From a virus (lineage: Duplodnaviria; Heunggongvirae; Uroviricota; Caudoviricetes): a stretch of 32,455 nt of DNA. Under the pieces are notes generated by a model. That model searched no databases. It was not told the DNA's origin and saw nothing but the letters and a program-made list of their open reading frames with translations. The first letter of the stretch is position 1; each line of letters opens with the position of its first letter. The stretch lies in the IMG/VR virus record IMGVR_UViG_2531839532_000012, positions 1-32,455 of that record; one strand, written 5' to 3'. Both the position numbers and the translations under genes were made by a program. Below are positions 1,398-24,902 of the stretch, piece by piece.

Positions 1398-1952
1398 TCA
1401 TTTATCTCCCACCGGAAACCTCTTATACAAAGTCGATATGCCAACATCATAGATGATCGCTACCTTCAGGCGAGGAACTCCTGATGCAATTAATCGTCCG
1501 GCCTGTGCCCATTGTTCTGGTGTAAGTTTGGGACGACGTCCACCAATTCGTCCCTGTGCGCGAGCAGCTTCCAGTCCAGCTTTTGTTCGTTCAACAATCA
1601 GTTCTCGTTCCATTTCAGCCAGGGCCCCCATCACATGAAAGAAAAAACGCCCCATCGGTGTGCTGGTATCAATAGCATCCGTCAGGCTGCGAAAATTAAC
1701 GCCACGTTCGCGCAACTCCTCAACCAGAATGACCAGATGCCGCATACTACGCCCCAGCCGATCCAGCTTCCAGACAACCAGAGTGCCCCCTGCCGATAAT
1801 GTCCTGAGCAGTTTTTTCAGTCCCGGCCTTTCGGACTTTGTACCGCTTATCTTGTCTTCAAAAATCAGCTCGCATCCTGCACAGTTCAACGCATTACGTT
1901 GTAGATCGGTATTCTGGTCATTTGTTGATACGCGTACATAGCCAATAAGCAT
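1398..1952 (-). CDS. pin: Serine-recombinase DNA invertase (Pin/Gin/Hin/Cin family), 184 aa
   Basis: N-terminus MLIGYVRVSTNDQNTDLQRNAL with catalytic Ser, and C-terminal HTH (GRPPKLT...STLYK). ATG 1952 preceded by GGGAG. The track ORF's 12 extra N-terminal codons were rejected. Confidence 0.9.
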   Translation of the reverse strand: MLIGYVRVSTNDQNTDLQRNALNCAGCELIFEDKISGTKSERPGLKKLLRTLSAGGTLVVWKLDRLGRSMRHLVILVEELRERGVNFRSLTDAIDTSTPMGRFFFHVMGALAEMERELIVERTKAGLEAARAQGRIGGRRPKLTPEQWAQAGRLIASGVPRLKVAIIYDVGISTLYKRFPVGDK

Positions 1953-1978
1953 GGTAGATCTCCCTGACAAAAGCAGGA

Positions 1979-2371
1979 ATGATGCCATTTGCTCGTTATT
2001 TCTGCATTTTCATAAACGTTGGTTTGGGAGAAGCGGCTAAAAGGAATGTAGGGACAGGGGCGAATCAGATACCTGATATGGGTAGCTTCACGCTTTCTGT
2101 TTCAGGTACTGGATATCAAAAATTACCATCAGGTTTTATTCTTCAGTGGGGCTCAATCGGCGCACCAGGCATTGCACAGGATGTAGTAACCCATTTCCCG
2201 ATTGCATTTCCAAACAGATGTCTGCGTGTTTTGGTCTCACAAGACTACACACCAGATAGCGGGGATGTTGGTTATATTGCCTGTGCAGGTTTTAGTCCCG
2301 ACCCGGTTAAATTTATATCCAGAGCCAGTACTCCTGGCCTCGGCGCTTCATTTTTAGCGTTAGGCTGTTAA
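1979..2371 (+). pseudogene. Orphan alternative tail-fibre C-terminal segment (Sv'-like); no own start codon
   Basis: Open frame ...[24 protein letters not shown]... typical of tail-fibre variable parts. It starts inside the crossover site, on the strand opposite the active tail-fibre gene and facing away from pin. Confidence 0.5.
2007..2032. other. Hin/Gin/Pin-type recombination (crossover) site: TTTTCATAAACG-TT-GGTTTGGGAGAA
   Basis: 26-bp imperfect palindrome with AAAC/GGTTT cores around a central TT, 55 bp from the pin start. It lies at the 5' end of the orphan tail-fibre segment, as gix/hix sites do. Confidence 0.5.
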
Positions 2372-2392
2372 TTTAGCTATATGGAGTTAAAA

Positions 2393-2614
2393 ATGAATTA
2401 CATATATTCCGCGACTACAAACTCTTTCTATCCGCTGGAGATGAAAGAGGATTACACTCAAGCTGACTCATGGCCAGATGATGCTGTTGAAGTGCAACTG
2501 GCACATGCCAACGGCGGATCTGTGCGTGGGATTTACAACCATGCTCAGTATCTTGATAAACGCAGAGAAATGATGCAGTGGTGGGCGGATTGGCTTGATG
2601 AAAAGGTGGAGTGA
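2393..2614 (+). CDS. Tail-fibre assembly (Tfa)-like protein, probably truncated (73 aa)
   Basis: GGAG then ATG 2393. N-terminus MNYIYSATTNSFYPLEMKEDY...DDAVEV resembles Tfa N-termini, but the protein ends after 73 aa where the AT-rich island begins. Confidence 0.4.
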   Translation: MNYIYSATTNSFYPLEMKEDYTQADSWPDDAVEVQLAHANGGSVRGIYNHAQYLDKRREMMQWWADWLDEKVE

Positions 2615-3003
2615 TCCACCTTAACCACTATCGAATAGAACAAAGCCTTGCAATCCAGTGCAAAGCTTTGTGTGTATGAGTTTTTTCTCACATCACCAGG
2701 CAATCATCAAACTCCGTATTCCTGGCGTCATTAATTATGTAAGTGATCACCACGAATATAGCCAGTGCAGAACTGTAACCATCATCATCTTCTGGCAGCG
2801 CTTCCCTTCTCCCGTTATCCAGATTAACCGGGTGGTGCTGAGGATGAGTCCGATATCGCTTGATCCTGAATTCCACATCTATAGCAAAGCGGAAGGATGT
2901 CTCAATGTCGTGGACACACAGTGTTACAGCCACAAATCTATAGCCTAAGAAAGGTTTATTTTGTAATTAAAGAAGATTTTAAAAACCAGATTACTCATTC
3001 ATA

Positions 3004-3032
3004 TAGACACCAATCCCCTACAGTCATAAAAT
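3004..3032 (+). promoter_or_regulatory. Candidate sigma70 promoter for the acyltransferase (TAGACA-N17-TAAAAT)
   Basis: Hexamers read directly in AT-rich DNA about 45 bp upstream of the ATG at 3075. Unverified. Confidence 0.3.
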
Positions 3033-3074
3033 GCCTCTTTTGAATTGCTTTATCTTCATAACAAGAGGTTATTG

Positions 3075-4150
3075 ATGCTTCGCCACTTAACAGGACTCAG
3101 ATTTATAGCTGCATTAATGGTTTATTTATGCCATTTAAATACAGACTATTTTGGTGTTTTTGTAAAAGAAATGTTTTCCCAGGGATTTATTGGCGTTTCC
3201 TTTTTCTTTATTTTATCTGGCTTCATTCTTTCATATTCATATGAAGACAAGCTAAAAAATGAAGTAACAAGTAAAAGACAGTTTATTCTTTTAAGATTGG
3301 CAAGAATTGTTCCAATGCATCTATTATTAGCCATGCCATTTATTTTACTAACCATTCACTTAAAGAACTTTGATTTTTCAAAAACCTTAACAAATATTTT
3401 ATTAATGCAAAGTTGGATACCAAAGGAGGATTACTACTTCTCATTAAATGGTGTATCATGGTCTTTGTCTGATGAGCTGTTTTTTTATTTAATGTTTATT
3501 CCGTTGATTTATACATCAATTACAAAGAAAGTAATCACTGCAATATCAATTATAACTCTACTATTAACTATATATTTTTTAAAAATTATACAAACAGAAG
3601 AACTTAATCACTGGTTATATTATATATTCCCAGTAAGCCGCTTGGTAGAATTTATTTGCGGCATGATTATTTACGCTTGCTGGAAAAACAGCCGACAGCA
3701 GACAGTCGACAGTCGACAGTCGACAGTCGACAGTCGACAGTCGACAGTCGACAGTCGACAGTCGACAGCCTTTTGTTTTTAATTTCACTATTACCTCTGC
3801 TAATAGCTATATATTATAGCAACAACATAAATAATAGTCTACGTTATTCGTTATATTATTTACTCCCCATGGTAATATTCTTTACTTCATGCATCTATCT
3901 AAGAAATGGAGTCATTCATACTATCCTCAGTTCAAAAACCCTAGAGCTATTAGGGAAATCATCATTTATTTTTTATTTAATTCATCAACCCATTATATTA
4001 TTTTGCTTTAAAATCTTTGGACATAACCCCGGACCACTCTATTTAATAGCGCTCCTTGTTATAATAACCATAGTCTCAATCATACTTTATAAATTAGTTG
4101 AGGAGCCTTTAGAGCTGATGCTAAGAAAACGAATTTTAGCAGTAAAATAA
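3075..4150 (+). pseudogene. Acyltransferase-3 family membrane protein (O-acetyltransferase-like), split by frameshift at a heptamer repeat
   Basis: AAGAGG then ATG 3075. N-terminus MLRHLTGLRFIAALMVYLCHL fits acyltransferase_3 proteins and the product is multi-pass hydrophobic. Frame 1 stops at 3782; a second frame continues from the repeat to 4150. Low GC. Confidence 0.7.
3701..3763. repeat. Perfect tandem heptanucleotide repeat (GACAGTC) x9, with degenerate copies at 3694-3700 and 3764-3770
   Basis: Counted directly in the sequence. The unit contains a SalI site (GTCGAC). It sits inside the acyltransferase coding region. Confidence 0.95.
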
Positions 4151-9476: not shown

Positions 9477-10250
9477 TCAGGCGGGATAAGATTGGGAGGT
9501 GGGAAAAACGATTTCTTTATAACAGCGACAATTCGGGAGCTCGCCAGCGTGACCTGTCATGCCGTCAAGCGTTGGAGGTTTGCCCCATTCGACAAATTTA
9601 CCTTCCATTTCCCGATGAGAATGCCTGACGTCACCATCTTCGGCTGTACGCCAGATATAACCATTCGAACCAATTGACAGCGCACGCGCCTGATCCAGCG
9701 CGCCGGTTGCACGTCCAAGTTCAGTACGGGCAATCAGGTCAGCTCTGGACTTTGCTATATCACCCGATGCGGCTATTTCTTTAGCAAAATATTCTGCTCT
9801 CCCACCGGTCACAACAGCTTCTGTCGCCCGATTCTGGATGTCGTACACCCTGTCAGCCGCCTCGAGGGGGAGCGATTTGATGTACTTGACCTGTTCGGCG
9901 ATGATGGATTGCATCACCTGGCCCACAGGAGCGCTTTCCACAAGATTGCGGAGCTCGCGACTGATGTTCTTGCTGTGTTGCCGCCAAACTTTCTCGTTCT
10001 GCCGGGTTAGGTCCGCAGTAAAGTTTTCCGCGACCTTTGTCGCCCAGGGGGTGATGATTTCACTGTAGCGTTCCAGCGCCTCAATAATTTCCGTGATACT
10101 GTCATTTGAACCATCGTAGCGACCATTTACGATGTCTCCGACCGCCCGCGCTATCCTGCGTAGGCTGGTTCGATAGCGGATTTCCGCCTGACGGTTCCTG
10201 CGGTTCGTCATCAGATTCGCCGATGCCGGGCGGCGCTTCATCTTCGGCAT
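9477..10250 (-). CDS. Phage head morphogenesis protein (Mu F / SPP1 gp7-like, 257 aa)
   Basis: Position directly after the portal gene. The start is ambiguous because it overlaps the portal 3' end by 110-149 nt. Confidence 0.55.
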   Translation of the reverse strand: MPKMKRRPASANLMTNRRNRQAEIRYRTSLRRIARAVGDIVNGRYDGSNDSITEIIEALERYSEIITPWATKVAENFTADLTRQNEKVWRQHSKNISRELRNLVESAPVGQVMQSIIAEQVKYIKSLPLEAADRVYDIQNRATEAVVTGGRAEYFAKEIAASGDIAKSRADLIARTELGRATGALDQARALSIGSNGYIWRTAEDGDVRHSHREMEGKFVEWGKPPTLDGMTGHAGELPNCRCYKEIVFPTSQSYPA

Positions 10251-11568
10251 TCTCGATGTCCTCGTCGGTAATGGATGCCCCGATGCCGGTTACGTCAGAA
10301 TTTTCGCGCAAATCAGTCATAGCGGCTTTCAGTGTCATCAGACCATCACCCAGCGCCGTACTGATTGCGTTGGTAGTGTTTAACGCCACCGTTGAGCGAT
10401 CGACATCAGACATTTGCCAGAGCGGGTTAAACTCAAACGTGAAATCATCCGGGAGCGGCTTGCCAAGTTCCGAACGATGCATGATGTCCAGTATCCGACG
10501 CACCGGAAGACGTAAACGCCTCTCCTGCAACGAACTGATGCGGTCGTAATAGTTGGCAAGATCTGCATCACCGGTAGAAAATCCTTTCGGGGACTGTCCG
10601 AACAACCGCACCAGTGGAATACCAACAGCGCCACTAATCTGTTCTGCAAACTGCGATAGGATGTCATCCAGACCACTGAAGCTGTACTGATGCGTTTCAA
10701 ACTTATCCCGCGAGTCCATGAGCGTCATGCCTTCATTGCTCTGGAACTGTCGAATCAGGTCGATATTCTTCAGCAACGCTTCATACGCAGGACCACCAAG
10801 TGCGATAAGCTCGCGTAGCTTCTCCACGCTGTAGGTACGCAAATGCGCCTTGTAGACCAGCTGCGCCGCGCCGACAGTAGCGCTGTCGAACGCGGTAAGA
10901 CGATCCCAGATACGCTCTACAACCGACATTCCCCATTCGTTCTCGGTCATCTTCTGCTGAAATGGCAGCGTGACGCCATCAAAGCGAATCAGGCGACTGT
11001 GATGAATGCGCCAGGCAGGAATTCCCGTTGCTGTGGTCACCACATCGTAAAACTCAGGTTTACCCAGGTCCGGCCCCATATCTTTAATGCGGCGGGTCAG
11101 TACCGGGTCGATCATCCAGCGGTCGAGCGGGAGAATCCCCTTAAACTTGCCCTTACAGATGGTTTCGGGTCGCAGCGGGGTCATTGGTGCCTGCCCCTCA
11201 ATCATGATGAAACCCACCGCGCCGCCGTAGAGGCGCGACCATTTCAGCACGTCATTCAGCGCATCCCAGATTTGCAACTCATCCAGTTGTGATTCGAGAA
11301 TGCCACGATCTTTTGCATCAATTTCCGAAGTGATGCGAATGCCTTTGCGGGTCATATCATCCGGGATAGCATCGACTGCTTCACCGATGATCCAGGATGA
11401 ACGATAGGACCATTCCACCAGCATGCGGTTACGACTGGTGAAATTAGCCCGGTAGGTGGATGCTGAGTGCTGGTTAGGTGTCTGCATCCCTACGCGGGCA
11501 ATAAAATTCTCATAACCATCAGCTGTAGCCTGCGCAGTTCGCCGCAGGGCTTGTTTGTTTCGTGCCAT
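10102..11568 (-). CDS. Portal protein (488 aa)
   Basis: ATG overlaps the large-terminase stop (ATGA). Size and position after the large terminase. Confidence 0.7.
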   Translation of the reverse strand: MARNKQALRRTAQATADGYENFIARVGMQTPNQHSASTYRANFTSRNRMLVEWSYRSSWIIGEAVDAIPDDMTRKGIRITSEIDAKDRGILESQLDELQIWDALNDVLKWSRLYGGAVGFIMIEGQAPMTPLRPETICKGKFKGILPLDRWMIDPVLTRRIKDMGPDLGKPEFYDVVTTATGIPAWRIHHSRLIRFDGVTLPFQQKMTENEWGMSVVERIWDRLTAFDSATVGAAQLVYKAHLRTYSVEKLRELIALGGPAYEALLKNIDLIRQFQSNEGMTLMDSRDKFETHQYSFSGLDDILSQFAEQISGAVGIPLVRLFGQSPKGFSTGDADLANYYDRISSLQERRLRLPVRRILDIMHRSELGKPLPDDFTFEFNPLWQMSDVDRSTVALNTTNAISTALGDGLMTLKAAMTDLRENSDVTGIGASITDEDIENAEDEAPPGIGESDDEPQEPSGGNPLSNQPTQDSAGGRRHRKWSLRWFK

Positions 11569-13190
11569 CAGGCCTGTCTCCCTAGCAGCTCCCAGATGTT
11601 CAGGGCTGAATTCATTGGGGCATAGTTGATCATCACCGAGTCGGCAAGGTTTGGCGACCGGGTTCCATCAGGCTGTTTATCAATAACGATTTTTCCCACA
11701 CTATTAATGGAATAGGTCGGCTGCGAAAGCTCGATGATGAGTTTATCTTTGAGTGCCATGCTACTGCTGATTGAGATGATCTCGTCCGGGTTGTAAGCCA
11801 TACCTTCAACCACGGCGCGCCAGGTATTCTGAAAAAGTTTACGTAACCGCCACCAGCTCTGGGCTTTGGCGTTAGCGAAGAAGTCCTTGTTCAGACGTGC
11901 GGCTTGCCCGTTGTCCCCGCGAACAGCTTCATCATCCGGATCAAATACCGCGCCACTACCTCGAAACGGTGTGGCAAGTATTGACGGTCGACGCGCAGCG
12001 TTACGCAGTTCGTTGATAGCGCGTGCATCGCCGCGAACGCCAGCGCCCAGCCCGTCCTCGTCAAAGCGAAACTCTTCGAGGTTGTCCTGTTCGCAAAAGC
12101 CGAAAACCTTCTCAACGGACTGATAAATGTCGCTGCCCACACCGGACCATTCCCGCACATTCTCCAGGAGGAAGCCATGACGGGTGGAAAAGGCATTTTT
12201 GTCCCTGCCTTCGTCGGCGACATCCATCGCGCCAAGTCGTTTGCCTGTTGGCTGGATACCCAGTTTGATATGCGCATCAACTGCAGCCTGTACCCATTCG
12301 GATGGAATCAGGACGCCTTCCGCTGATGCGCTGTAGTTCAGATCAAGTTCCTGTGCCACCACCACCGGATTATCGATTTTCTCGCATTCCCTGCGATACC
12401 ACTCTTCATCCTTGCGAAGATCATCTCGCCAGTGGAATGTGAATACCGGTATCTTCCCGCCATGACGCTTCTGAGCGAACGGGTTCGCCATGCCGTTAAC
12501 TGAACTCAGGTCAATACGGCAACGCGTCGTTTGTGACAACGCCGCATCAATCAGCAGAGGACGCTGAAGGAATGCAGCCTCATCAACCAGATAAAGCGTG
12601 GTACGGTCACCACGACCAATATTATCGCCAGCCTCGCCTTTGATAACGGCACCAGTTTCAGGAAACTCAACACGCATATATGGCGCGTGCTTCTTCTCGC
12701 TCCACGAACCGCGAAACTCTACAGGTAGCGTTTCCACGAACTTGCGCGCCTTCCAGAACAATGCTTTCGGGTCACCAGTGCTGTCGACGTATTCCTCTTT
12801 ACGGGAGCCGAAACCGATAACCATTTCTTTGTTGAAGAGACAAAGCGAGCAGGCCAGTCCGATCGCGGTCCAACTGAGCCCCATTTCACGGGATTTTTCG
12901 GTAATACCATTCTCCCGATTGCTCCAGCGTTCCATAATCCAGTGGATCCACTCCTCCTGCTTAGGGAAGAGTAAAAACGGAATGGTCCCCGGCAGGCCAT
13001 AATCAATATTACGCGGGTCCGTTGTCATGCCCCAGTCGATGATGAACTGAGCCGGATTAGTTCGGTAAAACTGTTTTAGTGCAGGCAATATTTCAGGATT
13101 CTGGCGAATGCGCTGTAGGCGTTCCATCCGCCATTCAAAAACCATCTGGTAATCAGGATGTTTAAAATCGAAGGGGAATGGTAACGGCAT
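11568..13190 (-). CDS. Terminase large subunit (540 aa)
   Basis: N-terminal ATPase region and C-terminal nuclease region (...LYLVDEAAF...). Follows the small subunit by 2 nt. Confidence 0.85.
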
Positions 13191-13192
13191 AC

Positions 13193-13744
13193 TTAGCCCA
13201 TTATTTTTCTATACGCCTCTGCAGCCTGCTCCGGCGTTAAGTTGGTAATTTCTGTTCTGACTGGTCCTCCATCAGCGCCAGTCACTTCATTTTTGACGTT
13301 GTCTTTAAACGCCTGAACAGAAACATGACGCCCAAGCAACTCAAGGTTTTTAACCTTATCAGGCCATTTGATTTTCTTCAGAAGTGCGGCGCTATCTGCG
13401 GATACCATCTCCACGACATCCATTCCTGATAGCGTTGTGCGCCATACCTTAGGCCAGTCTTTAATGGGCTTTAGCTCACCGTTTTGCAGGAGAATGTCGA
13501 GCACATCCATCTGGTCGATTTCAATAAGGCGATTAAGTACATATTCTGCATTAATACCAACAAGATCATTGCGTTGCGCTTTCAGTTCGGCGATTCTTAA
13601 CTTGATGTCAGGTTTTGACAGGTTTTCGGATGCGGTACGGTTAGCTGTCTTTGCGCTGTCCCCCGCCCGAATAGCCGCTTGCGTGGCGTTTAAATCGATG
13701 AGGTACTCGCGACAGAACATCTCTTGTTTGTCGGTGAGTGCCAT
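13193..13744 (-). CDS. Terminase small subunit (183 aa)
   Basis: N-terminus [28 protein letters not shown] is the HTH signature of small terminase subunits. Confidence 0.7.
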
Positions 13745-13768
13745 GACAAAGTCTCAATTGGATTGAAA

Positions 13769-14041
13769 ATGAGTGATTTATTACTAATTAAAAACTGGTT
13801 AATTGACCATCATGCACTATCGATTTTCTTTGGGTTTTTATCGGCTGGGTTATGGATCAAATCAGCAACAGCCAAAGTCAAAACAGGTAGAAGCACCGTT
13901 GTAGCAATTACATTTGATGATCCCAAAAAAAATGTAGATCTTCACGAATTTTTCTTAACTGCGCGGTTACAGTCTAAATATAACTCATATGCAGCTTTCG
14001 CTGCTGCTGTAACTGTGATTTTGCAAATGGCTGGCTATTAG
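13769..14041 (+). CDS. Small two-TM membrane protein (90 aa), opposite-strand moron
   Basis: ATG 13769 (MSDLLLIKNWLIDHHALSIFFGFLSAGLWI...). Two hydrophobic segments, AT-rich, on the strand opposite the late operon. Confidence 0.4.
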   Translation: MSDLLLIKNWLIDHHALSIFFGFLSAGLWIKSATAKVKTGRSTVVAITFDDPKKNVDLHEFFLTARLQSKYNSYAAFAAAVTVILQMAGY

Positions 14042-14129
14042 AAAACCTTAACCAGGATATTATTTACCTTTATCAATATCAGTTAACGGCTCAAAGTGTA
14101 ATGGTTCCACATTCTCCTAATGGAGTTAT

Positions 14130-14243
14130 TTACTCGCCCGTCTCGGTAGCCAGCTGCATAAAGCCATTAACCAGCTCAGGCTGACGTCGTGACGTCTTGC
14201 CCGTAAAGGTTTCGCCTGTTTGGGTTTGGTAGATGTCGGACAT
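14130..14243 (-). CDS. Small ORF (37 aa) with good SD
   Basis: AGAGG 5 nt before the ATG. MSDIYQTQTGETFTGKTSRRQPELVNGFMQLATETGE. Below the track size cut-off. Confidence 0.3.
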   Translation of the reverse strand: MSDIYQTQTGETFTGKTSRRQPELVNGFMQLATETGE

Positions 14244-14507
14244 TGAGAGCCTCTTTATCTGCTTGTGGGGATATATGGTTAATTATCCTCTGTAGGGGAT
14301 ACTGCCATCACAATGGGGAGAATCATCGTAATGGCAATAAAAACCGCCCATAGGCAGTTAATCTGAAAGACCAAATTTCTTTTTTGCGTAGGATTTTAGA
14401 AGCTCTACACCAACATCTTTCAATACCGATAATGGTTGATCGCTAATTGTTTTTAGCTTCTTAAAAACATCCTTTTGTTGAAGGGTTTCTGCAAACTCTT
14501 GGCCTGA

Positions 14508-14765
14508 TTACGTGAGTCTTACATTGGCTGGCCATTCACGGATTTCATTAAGCCCAATAGTAAGTCCTAATTTCTTAGGATCGCCTATTTCTAGAAAATG
14601 GTTACTGATATAACCTCTCTCAATCAATTGGTAGTAATGAAAGAGTCCTTTATCGCTGCTTATTTCGTATCCAGCTTTTTTAAGGTCATTAGCTGATATC
14701 AATGGTCCGCCAGCCTTAATAAAGACCCCTAACATTCCCTTCAAGTATTCCAGATCGGTCTGCAT
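14508..14765 (-). CDS. Hypothetical protein (85 aa), AT-rich moron downstream of Rz
   Basis: Strong SD GGAGG 6 nt before ATG 14765. About 40 percent GC against about 52 percent for phage core genes. Confidence 0.55.
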   Translation of the reverse strand: MQTDLEYLKGMLGVFIKAGGPLISANDLKKAGYEISSDKGLFHYYQLIERGYISNHFLEIGDPKKLGLTIGLNEIREWPANVRLT

Positions 14766-14823
14766 AAATTACCTCCATCCTGAGAAATAGAGATAATATT
14801 ACCCTTAAAATTCTTCATTAACA

Positions 14824-15285
14824 CTAATTTGAACACTGCTCTTTGATGTAGTCCTGCAAGTAGCCGACCTGCTTCGTCACTGTGACGATTCGCTCTCTGA
14901 GGGTGAAATAATCCCGTTCAGCGGAGTCAGTAAGTCCGGGGCTGGAAGCATCGCCCAAGCTGCCGGTGCCGGTCTTTCCGCTCGCTGGACATCGGGCATT
15001 GAAGTGCAGCCCACACTTGCCAGTGCGAACACAACGCTGCAGATCATCAAGCTGCTTTTTCGCATCAGCTAGTTCTCCGGTGTATTTAGCATCGAGTGCA
15101 TCAGCATCACGCTGGCGCTGCTGCATGTCAGTAATTGCCGCGTTCGCCAGCTTCAGTTCTCTGGCATTTTTGTCGCGCTGGGCTTTGTAGGTAATGGCGT
15201 TATCACGGTAATGATTAACAGCCCATGACAGGCAGACGATGATGCAGATAACCAAAGCGGAGATAATCGCGGTGACTCTGCTCAT
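14824..15285 (-). CDS. Spanin inner-membrane subunit Rz (153 aa)
   Basis: N-terminal TM helix, coiled-coil body, overlaps the endolysin stop, embedded Rz1 frame. Confidence 0.8.
14877..15065 (-). CDS. Spanin outer-membrane lipoprotein Rz1 (62 aa), embedded in Rz
   Basis: Lipobox LASVGC and Pro-rich [11 protein letters not shown]...[11 protein letters not shown], closely resembling lambda Rz1. Confidence 0.75.
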
Positions 15286-15758
15286 ACCTCAATCTCTCTG
15301 ACCGTTCCGCCAGCTTTTTTAAATCGGGCAATCAGGTCACCGATTTTATGTTCATACTGACCGTAACCTGCACCAGGTAACGACGCCCAGATATTGCTGC
15401 AACGGTCGATTGCCTGACGAATACTGCCGCGGTCAATCATCGGTAAAGCACCACGTTCTTGAATCTGCTGCAGAGCTACAGCGTCCTGACTTTCTGGAGA
15501 AAAATCTTTCAGGCCAAGCTGTTTACGGTAAGCATCCCACCAGCGTGAAAGAAGCTGGTAACGTCCGGCGGCTGTTGATTTGAGTTTGGGGTTTAGCGTG
15601 ACAAGTTTGCGGGGGTGATCGGAGTAATCAGTGAACAGTTCGCCACCAACAATAACATCATAACCGTGGTTACGTGTCGGTTGTCGCCCGTTATCCGTTC
15701 CTTCTGACCATGCCACCATATCCAGGAAAGCTTTACGCTGTGAATTTAGTGCCTGCAT
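15282..15758 (-). CDS. Endolysin, lambda R-type lytic transglycosylase (158 aa)
   Basis: Near-identity to recalled lambda R ([21 protein letters not shown]...[20 protein letters not shown]...). Confidence 0.9.
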
Positions 15759-15761
15759 AAA

Positions 15762-16103
15762 TTACTCCTTCGATCTACCAAATTTGTTACCGATTACTCG
15801 CATTGCAGCCCCACGAATAGCATCGACACCGATCAGCCCCACGCCACCACCAATGGCAACAGAAAGCGATTTAGGCCATCCGACATACTCAAGAGCGGAT
15901 GCAAAGGTCAGCGTCAGAGCGCCACATAGCAAAATCTCGAGCGTTTTTCGCTTCCAGCCACCACCACCGCCAAAATAGGCGATGCGCAACCCAGCCATAA
16001 CGATCGACATAATCACTGCGCCCAGCGGTGTGTCTCCACGCCACCAACTTTGTAAGAGTTCCAGTAAGTCAGGCCAGGAATGAGGGACATTGTGCATTTT
16101 CAT
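15762..16103 (-). CDS. Holin with dual-start motif (Met-Lys-Met)
   Basis: ATGs at 16103 and 16097 give MKMHNV..., the lambda S antiholin/holin arrangement. GGAGG upstream. Hydrophobic helices. Directly upstream of the endolysin. Confidence 0.65.
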   Translation of the reverse strand: MKMHNVPHSWPDLLELLQSWWRGDTPLGAVIMSIVMAGLRIAYFGGGGGWKRKTLEILLCGALTLTFASALEYVGWPKSLSVAIGGGVGLIGVDAIRGAAMRVIGNKFGRSKE

Positions 16104-16320
16104 AAGCCTCACCTCCGAAAGTTCGGATGGTGCTAAATGTAAGATTCAGGCTCTCTGGCTTGCTCACAAGAAGTCGAGGATGTTTCCGGAGCCTAACAAC
16201 GAAAAAGCCCCGGGACATGCCAGGGCCAGATGGAGTACCAGATTAAGCTTCTGGCGGTATATCCTCGTGTTTGATATCGTTAAATCGCCAAAAGTAACCA
16301 TATCAATTAAAGGAGTATAT

Positions 16321-16599
16321 ATGGCTAGTTTTACTGTCCGCGTTGAGCTTGTGGGTGCATCATCCGATGACTACGCTCGCCTTCATGAGGCGATGGAATC
16401 CCGAAGATACTTTCGCGAAATTCAAGATGGAGCAGGAAACTGGTTTTATCTTCCAGACGCTGAGTACACAGCCGAAAAAAACGCATCTGCTCGCGCAGTC
16501 CGAGAAGAAGTTGTAGCCATCGCTGGGACAATAAAAAAGAACCCTCGGGTGCTAGTCACTCAAGCGGCAGATCGCTCATGGCATTTAATCAAGAAGTGA
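16321..16599 (+). CDS. Hypothetical 92-aa protein; opposite-strand moron between late promoter region and lysis cassette
   Basis: Strong SD AGGAG 5 nt before ATG 16321. Candidate terminator hairpin about 40 nt downstream. Family not recognised. Confidence 0.5.
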   Translation: MASFTVRVELVGASSDDYARLHEAMESRRYFREIQDGAGNWFYLPDAEYTAEKNASARAVREEVVAIAGTIKKNPRVLVTQAADRSWHLIKK

Positions 16600-16815
16600 G
16601 TTTTGATCGCCATTAACGGGTATTCCGTTCCCGCTACGCCCCTCACCAACCTCAGGGGCGCTTTCATAGCGCTCCATCGCAATAAACGCGGCAGCGATGC
16701 AATGCCCCAAATTTTCAAAATCATCCCCCCCCGGGTTAGCCCGAGCCACAATGAACTGACCCAGTGTGATTTTGGCCTGAGATCGGGAATCAGAAGATAA
16801 TTCATAAAATTTCAT
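16585..16815 (-). CDS. Hypothetical 76-aa protein, 3' end overlapping the convergent moron by 15 nt
   Basis: GGAG 8 nt before ATG 16815. Reality uncertain because a plus-strand terminator hairpin lies inside it. Confidence 0.3.
   Translation of the reverse strand: MKFYELSSDSRSQAKITLGQFIVARANPGGDDFENLGHCIAAAFIAMERYESAPEVGEGRSGNGIPVNGDQNSLLD
16637..16666 (+). terminator. Candidate terminator for the 16321-16599 moron (CGCCCCT-loop-AGGGGCG + CTTTC)
   Basis: Perfect 7-bp GC-rich stem with 10-nt loop and a short T-rich tail. Confidence 0.35.
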
Positions 16816-16952
16816 GGGTGTTCTCCAGAAACAACAAAACCCGCTCAATGGCGGGTTCTGGTAAAGTTCATGCGCTTGGTTCGCCTCGCGATACAGCTTT
16901 GCGAAGCGTACCGGGATTGAAGCAGTTTATGTGCAAAAATGCAAGAACTTTT

Positions 16953-17510
16953 TTAAAGCTGCATCAACCTTTCCACCAGTTTATCTCTGCGAACAACAAA
17001 CCAACCATTGGCTCTCGCCAGTTCCAGCCATGACTCAAGGGAAATAACAATATCATCATCCCGTAACTGAATTGTGGAAACAGTGACACCGCCTCTCTGA
17101 TAACAGAGAACTCGCGTGTCGTAACTTTTCTGGCATGAAACTGGCGTTGACGGATCCTTTTGACTGAAATAGCAGTCTTCCAGTTTTTCGAACACATCCC
17201 ATGCCTGATCGGTTTCGAGCATTTTGGCGTGGCGTGCTGCGCCTCGTTCTGTCCAGAGGATGAGGGAGCGGGCTTTGGGTGAAACTGGATTTTGTGAGTA
17301 GTTTAAAGCGACCCGCAATTCTTTAAGGTCATTACCAACAACTTTGAAAAAGTGTTTCCCTTCAACGAAGCGTACTTTGTTCTCATGATGATTCTGGCGA
17401 ATACGCACCGGCTCAGTGCCGTAAAGCTGCGCCAAAAGTTCGGTGGTAATAACAGGAATCTGGTTATGGGTGATCGGGGAGAGAGTTTCAACAGAGATTT
17501 GAGTGGTCAT
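16953..17510 (-). CDS. Antirepressor-like protein (185 aa)
   Basis: N-terminus MTTQISVETLSPITHNQIPVITTELLAQLYG...FVEGKHFF resembles the N-terminal domain of phage antirepressors. GGAG upstream. Confidence 0.5.
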   Translation of the reverse strand: MTTQISVETLSPITHNQIPVITTELLAQLYGTEPVRIRQNHHENKVRFVEGKHFFKVVGNDLKELRVALNYSQNPVSPKARSLILWTERGAARHAKMLETDQAWDVFEKLEDCYFSQKDPSTPVSCQKSYDTRVLCYQRGGVTVSTIQLRDDDIVISLESWLELARANGWFVVRRDKLVERLMQL

Positions 17511-17673
17511 AACGATAACTCCGTACATTTGGACATTATCGCCACCGTCAGGTGCTAATCATCGTGGTGGCGAACTGTGCGGGGTTAGCACTACCGGGTA
17601 CGGAACCCGGCGAGCCTTTCGGCTCCCCCACACAGCCCGCCATAAATCGCGAATGTGACTGTGCAAACGATAT

Positions 17674-19784: not shown

Positions 19785-19940
19785 TTACTCCTCAGATTCG
19801 TAAGCTGTGAAGACAGCAACCTCCGTCTGGCCGGTACGGATTCGTACCTCGCAGAGGTCTTTCCTCGTTACCAGTGCCGTCACTATGACGGTTAAACAGA
19901 TGACGATCAGGGCGATTAACATCGCCTTTTGCTGCTTCAT
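19785..19940 (-). CDS. hok: Hok/Gef-family type I toxin (51 aa)
   Basis: MKQQKAMLIALIVICLTVIVTALVTRKDLCEVRIRTGQTEVAVFTAYESEE, near-identical to recalled HokD/RelF. SD GGAGAAG. Confidence 0.85.
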   Translation of the reverse strand: MKQQKAMLIALIVICLTVIVTALVTRKDLCEVRIRTGQTEVAVFTAYESEE

Positions 19941-24479: not shown

Positions 24480-24902
24480 TCAATGCACTACGACAGAATC
24501 GCCGGGCGACCCACCACCGCTGAAATGTGCTTTCCGGTAAACGGCCTGGACTGCATCATCATGCGCATCAATTGCCGTACTCAACGCTTCCTGCGCCGCC
24601 AGTAATGCACGGCGCTCCAGGGTATCGAAGATGCAGATTCGGTGACGCAGCTCGCGCGGAAGAATTGCCAGAACCGCAGGGATCAGTTTCTGAATTTTTT
24701 CCCTTTGCGCTTTCGTTTCACCTTTCAACCAACGGTGATAGATATTCTGCTGATTGTTCCAGTCCTTGCCTGGTACAAGGGGCAATTCGCCTCCCCCCTG
24801 GCGCAGATATTCTTCAGTAATTGCGTTAGCGACCCACGCCTGCCCTTTTTCGGCTGCCAGGGCTAACAACACTGATTCGATGTGCTCATGCCTGATTTTC
24901 AT
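24480..24902 (-). CDS. ydaT: YdaT-like protein (140 aa), CII-position regulator
   Basis: MKIRHEHIESVLLALAAEKGQAWVANAITEEYLRQGGGELPLVPG matches recalled Rac YdaT. ATG overlaps the cro-like stop. Confidence 0.65.
   Translation of the reverse strand: MKIRHEHIESVLLALAAEKGQAWVANAITEEYLRQGGGELPLVPGKDWNNQQNIYHRWLKGETKAQREKIQKLIPAVLAILPRELRHRICIFDTLERRALLAAQEALSTAIDAHDDAVQAVYRKAHFSGGGSPGDSVVVH

Follow-up and report, generated by a model that had tools for sequence, protein, structure and literature searches.

In bacteriophage lambda, bor is located in the interval from Rz/Rz1 to the packaging genes, runs antisense to the late operon and is expressed by the prophage. As defined by Juhala and Hendrix, morons are genes that deviate in base composition, are present in some phages and absent from their relatives, possess their own promoter and terminator, and are expressed from the prophage (PMC3594210). 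The HK97 moron protein gp15 is a small inner-membrane protein that confers superinfection exclusion by blocking genome injection (PMC3594210).

Judged by comparison with related prophages, positions 13745-14823 of the window (the whole stretch of 32,455 nucleotides that was analyzed) are, in a lambdoid E. coli prophage with its late genes on the minus strand, a hypervariable accessory slot that separates the lysis cassette from the packaging genes. Pfam confirms the two flanks proposed in an earlier sequence-only reading: the small terminase subunit gene terS (13193-13744, minus strand; Terminase_2, 6e-38) on one side, and on the other the spanin genes, with the Rz i-spanin (14824-15285, minus strand; Phage_lysis, 3e-37) and the Rz1 gene embedded in it (14877-15065). 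The PGAP label for Rz in an identical locus is "lysis protein". The three ORFs placed in the slot by that reading are all found in the ORF list, namely a 90-residue ORF on the plus strand (13769-14041) and, on the minus strand, a 37-residue ORF (14130-14243) with an AGAGG Shine-Dalgarno sequence upstream and an 85-residue ORF (14508-14765) preceded at 7 nt by a strong one, GGAGG. Homologues were found for 3/3 of them, and therefore none is a chance ORF. The same reading recognized no family among them; all three do match PHROGs, every one of these families being of unknown function.

The slot has a GC content of 0.387, as compared with a window mean of 0.479 (sd 0.05, 1079-bp windows), 0.471 for terS and 0.528 for Rz. 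Its description as AT-rich is thus right for the region as a whole, although the 37-residue ORF stands at 0.535 and lower values are reached elsewhere in the window, down to 0.31 within positions 2050-4050. The 90-residue gene (0.366) and the spacer that follows it at 14042-14129 (0.33) are both AT-rich. An Rfam scan of positions 13400-15100 (E<=1) returned no match, nor did the PADLOC models. Packaging homology, named beforehand as a finding that would speak against accessory cargo, was searched for, and no packaging family matched the slot ORFs in Pfam or PHROG, so that this objection does not arise. The proposal of accessory cargo in a bor-like moron position stands in part: the slot is variable, as S1 and HZ13 differ there, and the 90-residue gene has the position and orientation expected, but two of the three ORFs are broken and the analogy does not extend to them.

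Modular architecture of the slot

Comparison with the S1, HZ13, M10, 210205630, M37H and K. aerogenes loci places homology breakpoints at 13744/5, 14131/2, 14301/2, ~14360 and 14824, which divide the slot into three modules. Module A (13745-14131) is the exchangeable segment with the 90-residue gene, module B (14132-14301) comprises the leader and the first 37 codons of a phrog_6581 gene, and module C (14302-14823) contains the gene of 135 codons to which the 85-residue ORF belongs, a terminator and a second hairpin. The boundaries of module A are set at 13744/13745 by S1 and at 14131/14132 by M10, 210205630 and M37H. The E. coli S1 prophage shares the portal-TerL-TerS DNA at 92% identity as far as the terS start codon (13744) and has unrelated genes beyond it, while in HZ13 the common sequence ends at 14301 and a Rha gene replaces the 85/135-residue gene. 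Module A is rare: among 5426 complete genomes of E. coli, 11 contain it. The module B block (14132/14137-14301) is found by blastn at 77-85% identity in four of the loci compared (L002, L003, L005 and L006) and occurs in ~25 further E. coli genomes. In two K. aerogenes loci (L011 and L012), the blastn block corresponds to window positions 13506-14355 and their real terS is located elsewhere, the first 240 bp of terS having been transferred together with the 90-residue gene. The comparison of the same slot in related prophages, which the sequence-only reading had suggested, thus reveals different cargo behind the same terS, as befits a mosaic accessory slot. The slot consists of three modules, each swapped independently. 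We are highly confident of this anatomy, together with the decay of two of the ORFs described below.

Two interrupted late-strand genes

The 85-residue ORF, previously taken for a whole gene, makes up the first 63% of a DUF2513-like winged-helix gene of 135 codons (14358-14765, minus strand) that matches phrog_585 over its full length (1e-26). Codon comparison identifies a premature TAA at codon 86 (14508-14510, minus strand), where four intact alleles have TCA (Ser86), a difference of one base. Beyond this in-frame stop, translation of the 135 codons shows that the frame stays open to 14358, and the gene is full-length in 4/4 near-identical E. coli prophages (R1, KSC64, WAT and MS 119-7). Homologues of the phrog_585 type form 39 clusters, nearly all of 134-140 residues, two being mere fragments with 83 and 98 residues, and their conservation is highest in the C-terminal part, which is absent from the 85-residue product. 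The dN/dS of the 135-codon gene is 0.09 relative to M10, and the sequence after the stop has hardly diverged, indicating that the loss of the gene is recent. On the strength of these alignments, the gene is inactivated in this prophage, the 85-residue ORF being an allele truncated by a nonsense change.

The AF2 model of an intact homologue (pLDDT 85.5) comprises helices at residues 5-16, 25-30 and 38-49, strands within residues 53-84 and helices within residues 86-131, so that the 85-residue product corresponds to the winged-helix part alone, devoid of the three C-terminal helices. At most, a winged-helix stub of 85 residues lacking the conserved C-terminal helices would be produced, and this stub is presumably non-functional. 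The repaired 135-residue sequence scores 15.9 bits against DUF2513 (PF10711; E 0.017), below the Pfam gathering cut-off of 29.6, and several of its homologues are named DUF2513 by NCBI. Foldseek reports PecS, MepR, MarR and PadR as the best PDB matches of this AF2 model (E>=3.8e-3, TM-scores 0.35-0.45), while a PDB sequence search with the family profile gave no match and a literature search returned no paper mentioning DUF2513. The protein resembles DUF2513 and MarR/PadR winged-helix proteins in its predicted winged helix followed by C-terminal helices and in its weak DUF2513 score, and differs from them in that the copy in the window is truncated, that this score remains below the cut-off and that its Foldseek matches get no better than E ~4e-3 at TM-scores of 0.40-0.45.

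Immediately downstream of the stop that ends the 135-residue frame, the terminator scan and RNA folding identify a hairpin with a T-run resembling an intrinsic terminator (14342-14359, minus strand), of which M10 carries a clearer version (CCGCC-TCC-GGGCGG-T6). Folding of the late-strand transcript also yields a 16-bp stem-loop at 14300-14339 (minus strand), the loop of which is inverted as compared with E. coli M10 (reverse-orientation blastn match, L003 4220-4181). The RNA fold of positions 14236-14365 reaches -36.7 kcal/mol (z = -3.3).

The 37-residue ORF is not a cargo gene in its own right either, as had been supposed, and is the 5' remnant of a phage gene of 66-72 residues: its phrog_6581 match (2.7e-14) spans only profile positions 1-41 of 66. 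Full-length homologues of 67-72 residues exist in M10, 210205630 and M37H. As compared with them, the ORF bears a 12-bp in-frame deletion and loses homology exactly at GGCGAG|TAA (14131/14132), a truncation junction that is common to HZ13 and K. aerogenes. Aligned in this way, the ORF is a recombination remnant, the 3' half of which has been replaced by module A. In the matched Enterobacter, Erwinia, Cronobacter and Hafnia phages, the phrog_6581 gene is the last of the late operon before the terminase. The copy in the window resembles it in its 37 N-terminal residues and leader (77-85% DNA identity) and in its position ahead of the packaging genes, and differs in that the first half alone survives, in a family without known function.

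The leader of the phrog_6581 gene (14244-14301, minus strand) is conserved, many of its columns being invariant across six loci, and contains a direct repeat of 19 nt (copies at 14255-14273 and 14283-14301) that reads TATCCCC..N..GGATAA/AGATAA on the late strand. Module B was accordingly considered as a conserved RNA or protein-binding site. The repeats and hairpins are real; however, substitutions among the full-length homologues are mostly synonymous, so that most of the conservation is explained by constraint on the coding sequence and by a role as linker in recombination. Module B is a dead remnant, probably kept as a homologous linker for recombination. Otherwise unrelated phages have this linker in common.

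The 90-residue protein and its family

The 90-residue gene is intact and matches phrog_14357 (4e-62). Its homologues comprise four close clusters, 16 representatives and, from a profile search, 129 hits with lengths of 46-161 residues, nearly all of them 82-134. The family, which amounts to ~130 clusters at 90% identity, reaches from the Enterobacteriaceae as far as Pseudomonas and Bradyrhizobium, most often within prophages or other mobile DNA, and includes neither a Pfam domain nor a characterized member. Residues W29, Q68, N72, A75 and A76 are nearly invariant. The AF2 model (pLDDT 80) is a helical hairpin with helices at residues 2-13, 16-34 and 58-88. Kyte-Doolittle profiles reveal two hydrophobic helices throughout phrog_14357, with 19-residue maxima of 1.34 and 1.09 in the protein studied here, as compared with family medians of 1.96 and 1.79. 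The two transmembrane segments assigned to this protein by the sequence-only reading are thus clear for the family and weak for this member, the least hydrophobic of all. From the model and these profiles, it is probably a small, membrane-embedded and uncharacterized protein.

Outside PHROG, the family searches gave nothing beyond sub-threshold noise. None of 121 family members scores above threshold in Pfam and NCBIfam, Foldseek comparison of the 90-residue model with BFVD and PDB gives no hit with E <= 0.001 (best 0.15 and 1.7, respectively), a PDB sequence search with the family profile finds no match, and neither does tblastn of the protein against 50,697 phage records. Several identities suggested by weaker matches were rejected. 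Alignment of 27/121 members with residues ~85-157 of NF011352 raised that of LspA, and is dismissed because the scores are below 20 bits against a cut-off of 223, the FNxAD of LspA corresponds to WNS(R)AA in the family, so that the catalytic Asp motif is missing, and none of the solved LspA chains was matched, even at E<=10. A SLATT two-transmembrane effector, suggested by 3/121 members matching NF033632 SLATT_4 (best E 0.006), is unsupported, and the Pfam SLATT family is not among the matches listed for the 121 members. As for a holin, the Pfam matches listed include no holin family, transcription of the gene runs counter to the late operon, and positions 15762-16112 already encode a holin of the lambda family. 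A positive-inside topology was also tried; the loop between the helices is net positive in this protein but the family median is 0, and owing to this inconsistency no topology is proposed.

The 90-residue gene is divergent from terS across a 24-bp spacer. It occupies the same slot in the same orientation in the K. aerogenes prophages and in phage or prophage loci that bear the homologue P0063 (L018-L020), which is 47% identical to the 90-residue protein. The two phage lineages in which the gene adjoins the start of terS have terS genes that are only 65-72% identical. The family recurs at a divergent position beside Terminase_2 small-terminase genes. The P0063 gene follows a 78-bp AT-rich spacer with a promoter-like site (TTCAAT-17-TATGCT) and a strong Shine-Dalgarno sequence, and is followed by a terminator made of a GC hairpin and a T-run. 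In the window, scans in which the number of matches did not exceed that of shuffled sequences predict neither a sigma-70 promoter of usable geometry upstream of 13769, the sole consensus match (13743-13770) overlapping the start codon, nor a plus-strand terminator after 14041. No partner gene recurs across ten genomic contexts of the family, the majority of which lie in prophages or other mobile elements. Some members are far from any terminase, and one distant member adjoins a ParE toxin gene.

The ORF is intact in 8/8 alleles read (the window, 300709, HZ13, R1, KSC64, WAT, MS 119-7 and K. aerogenes), with up to 13% DNA divergence. E. coli alleles differ by 1-3 nonsynonymous and 0 synonymous changes, while dN/dS relative to K. 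aerogenes is 0.27-0.45. As far as these few differences tell, little constraint is discernible among the close alleles.

Candidate roles of the 90-residue protein

Among described systems, lambda bor resembles the 90-residue gene in its genomic slot, its antisense orientation and its small envelope-directed product (predicted for the 90-residue protein), as well as in a GC content deviating from the flanks and in presence or absence among related phages. With respect to the moron definition, the gene deviates in base composition from terS, Rz and the window mean, and its presence is variable, given the divergence of S1 past 13744 and the few E. coli genomes with module A. It differs from bor in that the protein is unrelated, no Bor family being among the Pfam matches listed (E<=1), in that it contains no cysteine and hence no lipobox, and in that a promoter and terminator of its own, the latter of which its P0063 homologue has, are not detectable in the window. 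The exclusion proteins HK97 gp15/YebO-like, T4 Imm and P22 SieA share with it the form of a short, stand-alone, prophage-borne hydrophobic protein without a partner gene, but no similarity in sequence or fold; moreover, gp15 is encoded in the tail operon whereas the 90-residue gene lies next to terS. More generally, PADLOC, Pfam, NCBIfam and Foldseek searches of BFVD and PDB detect no similarity to known exclusion or defence proteins, and the matches listed in Pfam and NCBIfam for the 121 family members include none to T4 Imm, YebO/gp15, SieA/B or Bor.

We consider it somewhat probable that the 90-residue gene encodes a functional membrane protein expressed from the prophage. It would act as a moron, like lambda bor in the same position, and a weak promoter in or beside the 5' end of terS may drive it in the repressed prophage. 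Inserted in the inner membrane, the product would form a helical hairpin, might oligomerize via the conserved W29, Q68, N72 and Q86, and would alter a membrane property to the benefit of the lysogen. The likeliest effect would be to block genome entry of superinfecting phages. Superinfection exclusion, which among the three slot ORFs could concern this protein alone, is a tentative assignment, and it is rather doubtful that the family represents a new single-gene determinant of superinfection exclusion or defence, which would consist of undescribed, Pfam-less, stand-alone two-helix membrane proteins.

Since two of the three slot genes have decayed, the whole slot may be eroding, in which case the 90-residue ORF would be part of functionless hitch-hiker DNA and still be open because too little time has elapsed. 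The absence of a predicted promoter or terminator, the unusually low hydrophobicity for the family, the rarity of the gene among E. coli genomes and the purely nonsynonymous differences between close alleles all agree with such decay. Against it, conservation of the family extends from E. coli to Pseudomonas and Bradyrhizobium, including near-invariant residues and constant length, the ORF has remained intact in every allele despite their divergence, and dN/dS relative to K. aerogenes is below 0.5, which makes us regard decay of the entire slot as unlikely. A membrane toxin, abortive-infection effector or lysis-timing modulator that kills or permeabilizes the cell on a phage cue would also be a small hydrophobic two-helix protein, the conserved polar residues Q68, N72 and Q86 of which could line a pore, and the neighbouring lysis cassette, the ParE gene beside one distant member and weak matches to SLATT_4 (3/121, best 0.006) and Cap15_TM (1/121) point the same way. 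Yet these matches are far below threshold and concern less than 3% of the members, the gene contexts reveal no conserved sensor or antitoxin partner, the gene runs opposite to the late lysis genes, and holin, endolysin and spanins are already encoded in full by the phage; a killing or lytic role is thus improbable.

Packaging is the remaining function to be weighed, either because module A contains pac or regulatory DNA by the terS start, or because the 90-residue or the DUF2513-like protein assists or regulates it. SPP1-type pac sites span the upstream region and the 5' end of the small-terminase gene, and here the 90-residue gene abuts the terS start in both lineages and, in K. aerogenes, was transferred along with the 5'-terminal 240 bp of terS. 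In prophages of Serratia and E. coli, furthermore, terS or ParB_N-type packaging genes are immediately preceded by DUF2513-like genes. However, the same terS is found in S1 and other prophages, at 92% identity as far as the ATG, and the DNA past it is entirely different, implying that nothing essential for packaging resides in 13745-14131. Other family members are distant from any terminase, a packaging factor is unlikely to be a membrane protein, and no packaging family was matched, so that we give this possibility very little credence. Taken as a whole, a mosaic slot with two broken genes and one moron-like membrane protein gene is the best explanation, and the one towards which we lean.

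The value of these results is mainly corrective, as an apparent cargo of three genes becomes one candidate gene, one recent pseudogene and one recombination scar. They stay within existing knowledge of morons and mosaic junctions, and the slot is an ordinary one. Given the precedents for phage exclusion among small membrane proteins of prophages, the 90-residue family is a reasonable target for a cheap plaque screen. For lambdoid prophages, the locus illustrates how the slot between lysis and terminase genes is rebuilt via module exchange at short conserved linkers.

Mosaic slot between the lysis and terminase genes

In the window, a lambdoid E. coli prophage, the late operon runs on the minus strand, along which holin (15762-16112), endolysin (15282-15758), Rz (14824-15285, with Rz1 embedded at 14877-15065), the stretch 13745-14823, the Terminase_2 small terminase gene terS (13193-13744), TerL (11568-13190), and portal (10102-11568) follow one another. 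PGAP annotation of a matching 13-kb stretch of E. coli 300709, which differs at 6 of 13,079 positions and at none across 13745-14823, is consistent with these assignments. The three ORFs that the sequence-only reading had placed there, an 85-aa ORF (14508-14765, minus strand), a 37-aa ORF (14130-14243, minus strand), and a 90-aa ORF (13769-14041, plus strand), were confirmed together with their Shine-Dalgarno sites. The GC content of 13745-14823 is 0.387, versus a window mean of 0.479 (sd 0.05, same-size windows) and 0.47-0.53 for terS, Rz, endolysin, and holin; the contributors are the 90-aa gene (0.366), the spacer 3' of it (0.33), and a 135-codon frame containing the 85-aa ORF (0.375), the 37-aa ORF itself being at 0.535.

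Comparison by blastn of positions 10000-17000 with the fetched loci returned breakpoints at 13744/13745, where E. coli S1 is 92% identical as far as the terS ATG and unrelated beyond, at 14131/14132, at 14301/14302, up to which HZ13 is 95% identical before continuing into a Rha gene, at ~14360, and at 14824. The entire 1,079-bp arrangement occurs in 10 of 5,426 complete E. coli genomes, and its terS-proximal module (13745-14131), carrying the 90-aa gene, in 11. This makes the stretch a variable accessory slot, one more instance of the moron or mosaic slots already known from lambdoid phages. The proposal of accessory cargo was right in kind, but the cargo amounts to a single small-protein gene, flanked by a recent pseudogene and an old recombination scar.

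The lowest-GC stretch of the window (2050-4050, GC 0.31) lies outside this slot. ORFs there are found at 3045-3782 (plus), 1979-2371 (plus), and 1398-1988 (minus); an Acyl_transf_3 ORF of 245 residues matches only profile positions 4-207 out of 326 and may thus be truncated. It adjoins a resolvase-type DNA invertase and a Gp53-like tail-fibre C-terminal fragment, and the ensemble resembles a conversion gene of the O-antigen-acetyltransferase type next to a tail-fibre segment that can invert. Three other accessory genes, all on the minus strand, are a 51-aa hokD type I toxin (19785-19940, PGAP name from a near-identical locus), a YdaT_toxin-domain ORF (24480-24902), and an ORF6N antirepressor-like gene (16953-17528) just upstream of holin.

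Truncated 135-codon gene and conserved linker

The 85-aa ORF is a nonsense-truncated allele of a 135-codon gene. Its homologue in E. coli M10 comprises 135 residues, and the window frame continues past the stop to 14358 (...RLT*SGQEFAETLQQKDVF...KKKFGLSD), thus covering 14358-14765. Codon 86 is TAA in the window and TCA in all four of the other prophages compared (R1, KSC64, WAT, and MS 119-7; 99% identity to the window over the region), in each of which PGAP annotates a 408-bp gene. An E. coli protein cluster (P0005) provides a full-length, 98% identical homologue, and 37 of 39 homologue clusters span 134-140 residues, the other two being short fragments of 83 and 98 residues. The segment lost 3' of the premature stop is the best-conserved part of the family, and comparison of the window with M10 gives a dN/dS of 0.09 for the whole frame and 0.03 beyond the stop, indicating strong constraint on the family and a recent truncation in the window.

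The repaired 135-aa sequence is covered end to end by its phrog_585 match (1e-26) and scores below threshold on DUF2513 (15.9 bits versus 29.6); no mention of DUF2513 was found in the literature searched. The AlphaFold model of an intact homologue (pLDDT 85.5) exhibits a winged helix with three helices after it, and its top Foldseek matches in the PDB are all MarR/PecS/MepR/PadR regulators, albeit weak (E ~4e-3, TM 0.35-0.45). Because the helical part serves dimerisation in MarR/PadR proteins, the 85-aa stub, which would keep the winged helix without it, is predicted to be inactive. In other genomes the gene is always co-oriented with the late operon, often directly upstream of terS or ParB_N-type genes. 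The KSC64 prophage is rearranged directly beyond Rz1 (L008 2633-3584), antitermination protein N and Ral genes replacing endolysin and holin; this copy has thus been deleted or recombined and is probably defective, and it retains intact 135-aa and 90-aa genes.

The 37-aa ORF is the remnant of a longer phage gene. Its match with phrog_6581 is limited to profile positions 1-41 out of 66, and full-length genes of this type (67-72 aa) are found in M10, 210205630, M37H, and matched Enterobacter, Erwinia, Cronobacter, and Hafnia phages, typically as the final gene ahead of the terminase or of the end of the genome. They differ from one another mostly at synonymous sites, hence the parent gene is protein-coding. 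Aligned to them, the window copy has a 12-bp in-frame deletion, and homology stops exactly at GGCGAG|TAA (14131/14132). HZ13 and two K. aerogenes prophages have the same junction, so the truncation arrived with the neighbouring module and predates the window prophage. In S1 (L002 4001-4183) and ~20 further E. coli genomes, the phrog_6581 gene contains in-frame stops (MSDIYIIKLNTNDGGE*...) and is unannotated, its DNA still being ~80% identical to intact copies; the explanation is either a pseudogene allele that has become widespread or conservation at the level of the DNA.

The remnant and its 58-bp leader form a linker (14132-14301) that is 77-85% identical among prophages with otherwise unrelated lysis and terminase cassettes, suggesting a short conserved junction where lambdoid modules recombine. 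The leader contains a 19-nt direct repeat (14255-14273 and 14283-14301; TATCCCC-N-GGATAA/AGATAA on the late, minus, strand), a candidate protein-binding site or RNA element. In six prophages that differ in the genes next to it, the promoter-proximal copy (14255-14273) is unchanged at most positions; the other copy varies more. On the late strand two hairpins precede the linker: a terminator-like one (14342-14359) and, immediately past this terminator of the DUF2513-like gene, a 16-bp stem-loop (14300-14339, minus strand). Compared with M10 (L003 4181-4220), the stems of the stem-loop are kept and its 16-nt loop is in reverse orientation, a small hairpin-associated inversion. Rfam returned no match at the linker or hairpins.

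The 90-aa gene and its family

The sole intact gene of the slot encodes the 90-aa protein, which matches phrog_14357 (4e-62). It has four close clusters; 16 relatives emerged from an exhaustive search across 1.84 billion representatives, and a profile search extends the family to 129 clusters, nearly all of 82-134 residues with few outside (46-161). Members are all unnamed or generically named, and no Pfam domain was found in them. Near-invariant positions are W29, Q68, N72, A75, and A76. The AlphaFold model (pLDDT 80) comprises helices 2-13, 16-34, and 58-88; both long helices are clearly hydrophobic in the family as a whole (median Kyte-Doolittle values over 19 residues, 1.96 and 1.79), with the window member at the weak extreme (1.34 and 1.09). 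We infer a small membrane protein; as loop charge is not consistently positive across the family, no topology is assigned.

A 24-bp spacer separates the gene from the terS start, and its orientation opposes that of the late operon. A 92% identical K. aerogenes allele occupies the same slot and orientation in prophages whose lysis and terminase cassettes are different. In these prophages (L011, L012 4738-4976), the gene adjoins a 240-bp fragment of a Terminase_2 terS 5' end, and the two evidently moved together; the fragment lies far from the prophages' real terS. No usable promoter or terminator was predicted for the gene in the window; its promoter would have to lie within the 5' part of the terS coding sequence, a location consistent with this co-transfer. 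A 47%-identical homologue (P0063), from an uncultured Caudovirales phage, a metagenome contig, and a 4.0-Mb bacterial genome, is also divergent from a Terminase_2 terS (65-72% DNA identity). Its loci display a textbook moron layout, with a 78-bp AT-rich spacer bearing a TTCAAT-17-TATGCT site, a strong Shine-Dalgarno sequence, and a GC hairpin plus T-run downstream. The more distant members come from prophages of Pectobacterium and Pseudomonas (early regions in the latter), an ICE-like element, a Bradyrhizobium island with an integrase nearby, and small islets on chromosomes; among the contexts examined no partner gene is conserved.

Possible functions of the 90-aa protein

Family searches offered two candidates, neither retained. 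Weak matches to positions ~85-157 of the LspA model NF011352 (NCBIfam) concern 27 of 121 members (best E 1.9e-5) at under 20 bits versus a cut-off of 223; the family is devoid of the catalytic Asp motif and its profile matches no solved LspA, and the resemblance is probably compositional or topological. SLATT_4 is matched by 3 of 121 members, below threshold, and gained no support from further tests. The listed Pfam and NCBIfam matches include no Bor, Imm, YebO, Sie, or holin family, PADLOC returned no match, and Foldseek of the 90-aa model against BFVD and PDB was uninformative.

A packaging-linked role is a rival explanation to which the proximity to terS and the travelling terS fragment are relevant; nothing essential for packaging by the window terS can lie in 13745-14131. 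The gene might also be without any function; of the few alleles available, those of E. coli are separated by 1-3 nonsynonymous but zero synonymous differences, as that reading would allow, whereas a dN/dS of 0.27-0.45 versus K. aerogenes points the other way. A hydrophobic helical product could alternatively be a membrane toxin or an abortive-infection effector. A precedent of another kind is HK97 gp15, the small inner-membrane product of a moron, which stops genome injection (PMC3594210). The 90-aa gene would be expressed from the prophage, its product acting in the inner membrane. Given these expected properties, the gp15 precedent, and the analogy with lambda bor, which we take to be its positional counterpart, a function benefiting the lysogen is our best guess. 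Superinfection exclusion would be the likeliest such function, though as a tentative suggestion that could well prove wrong, and the slot would be of wider interest only if the 90-aa family proves to be an exclusion determinant.
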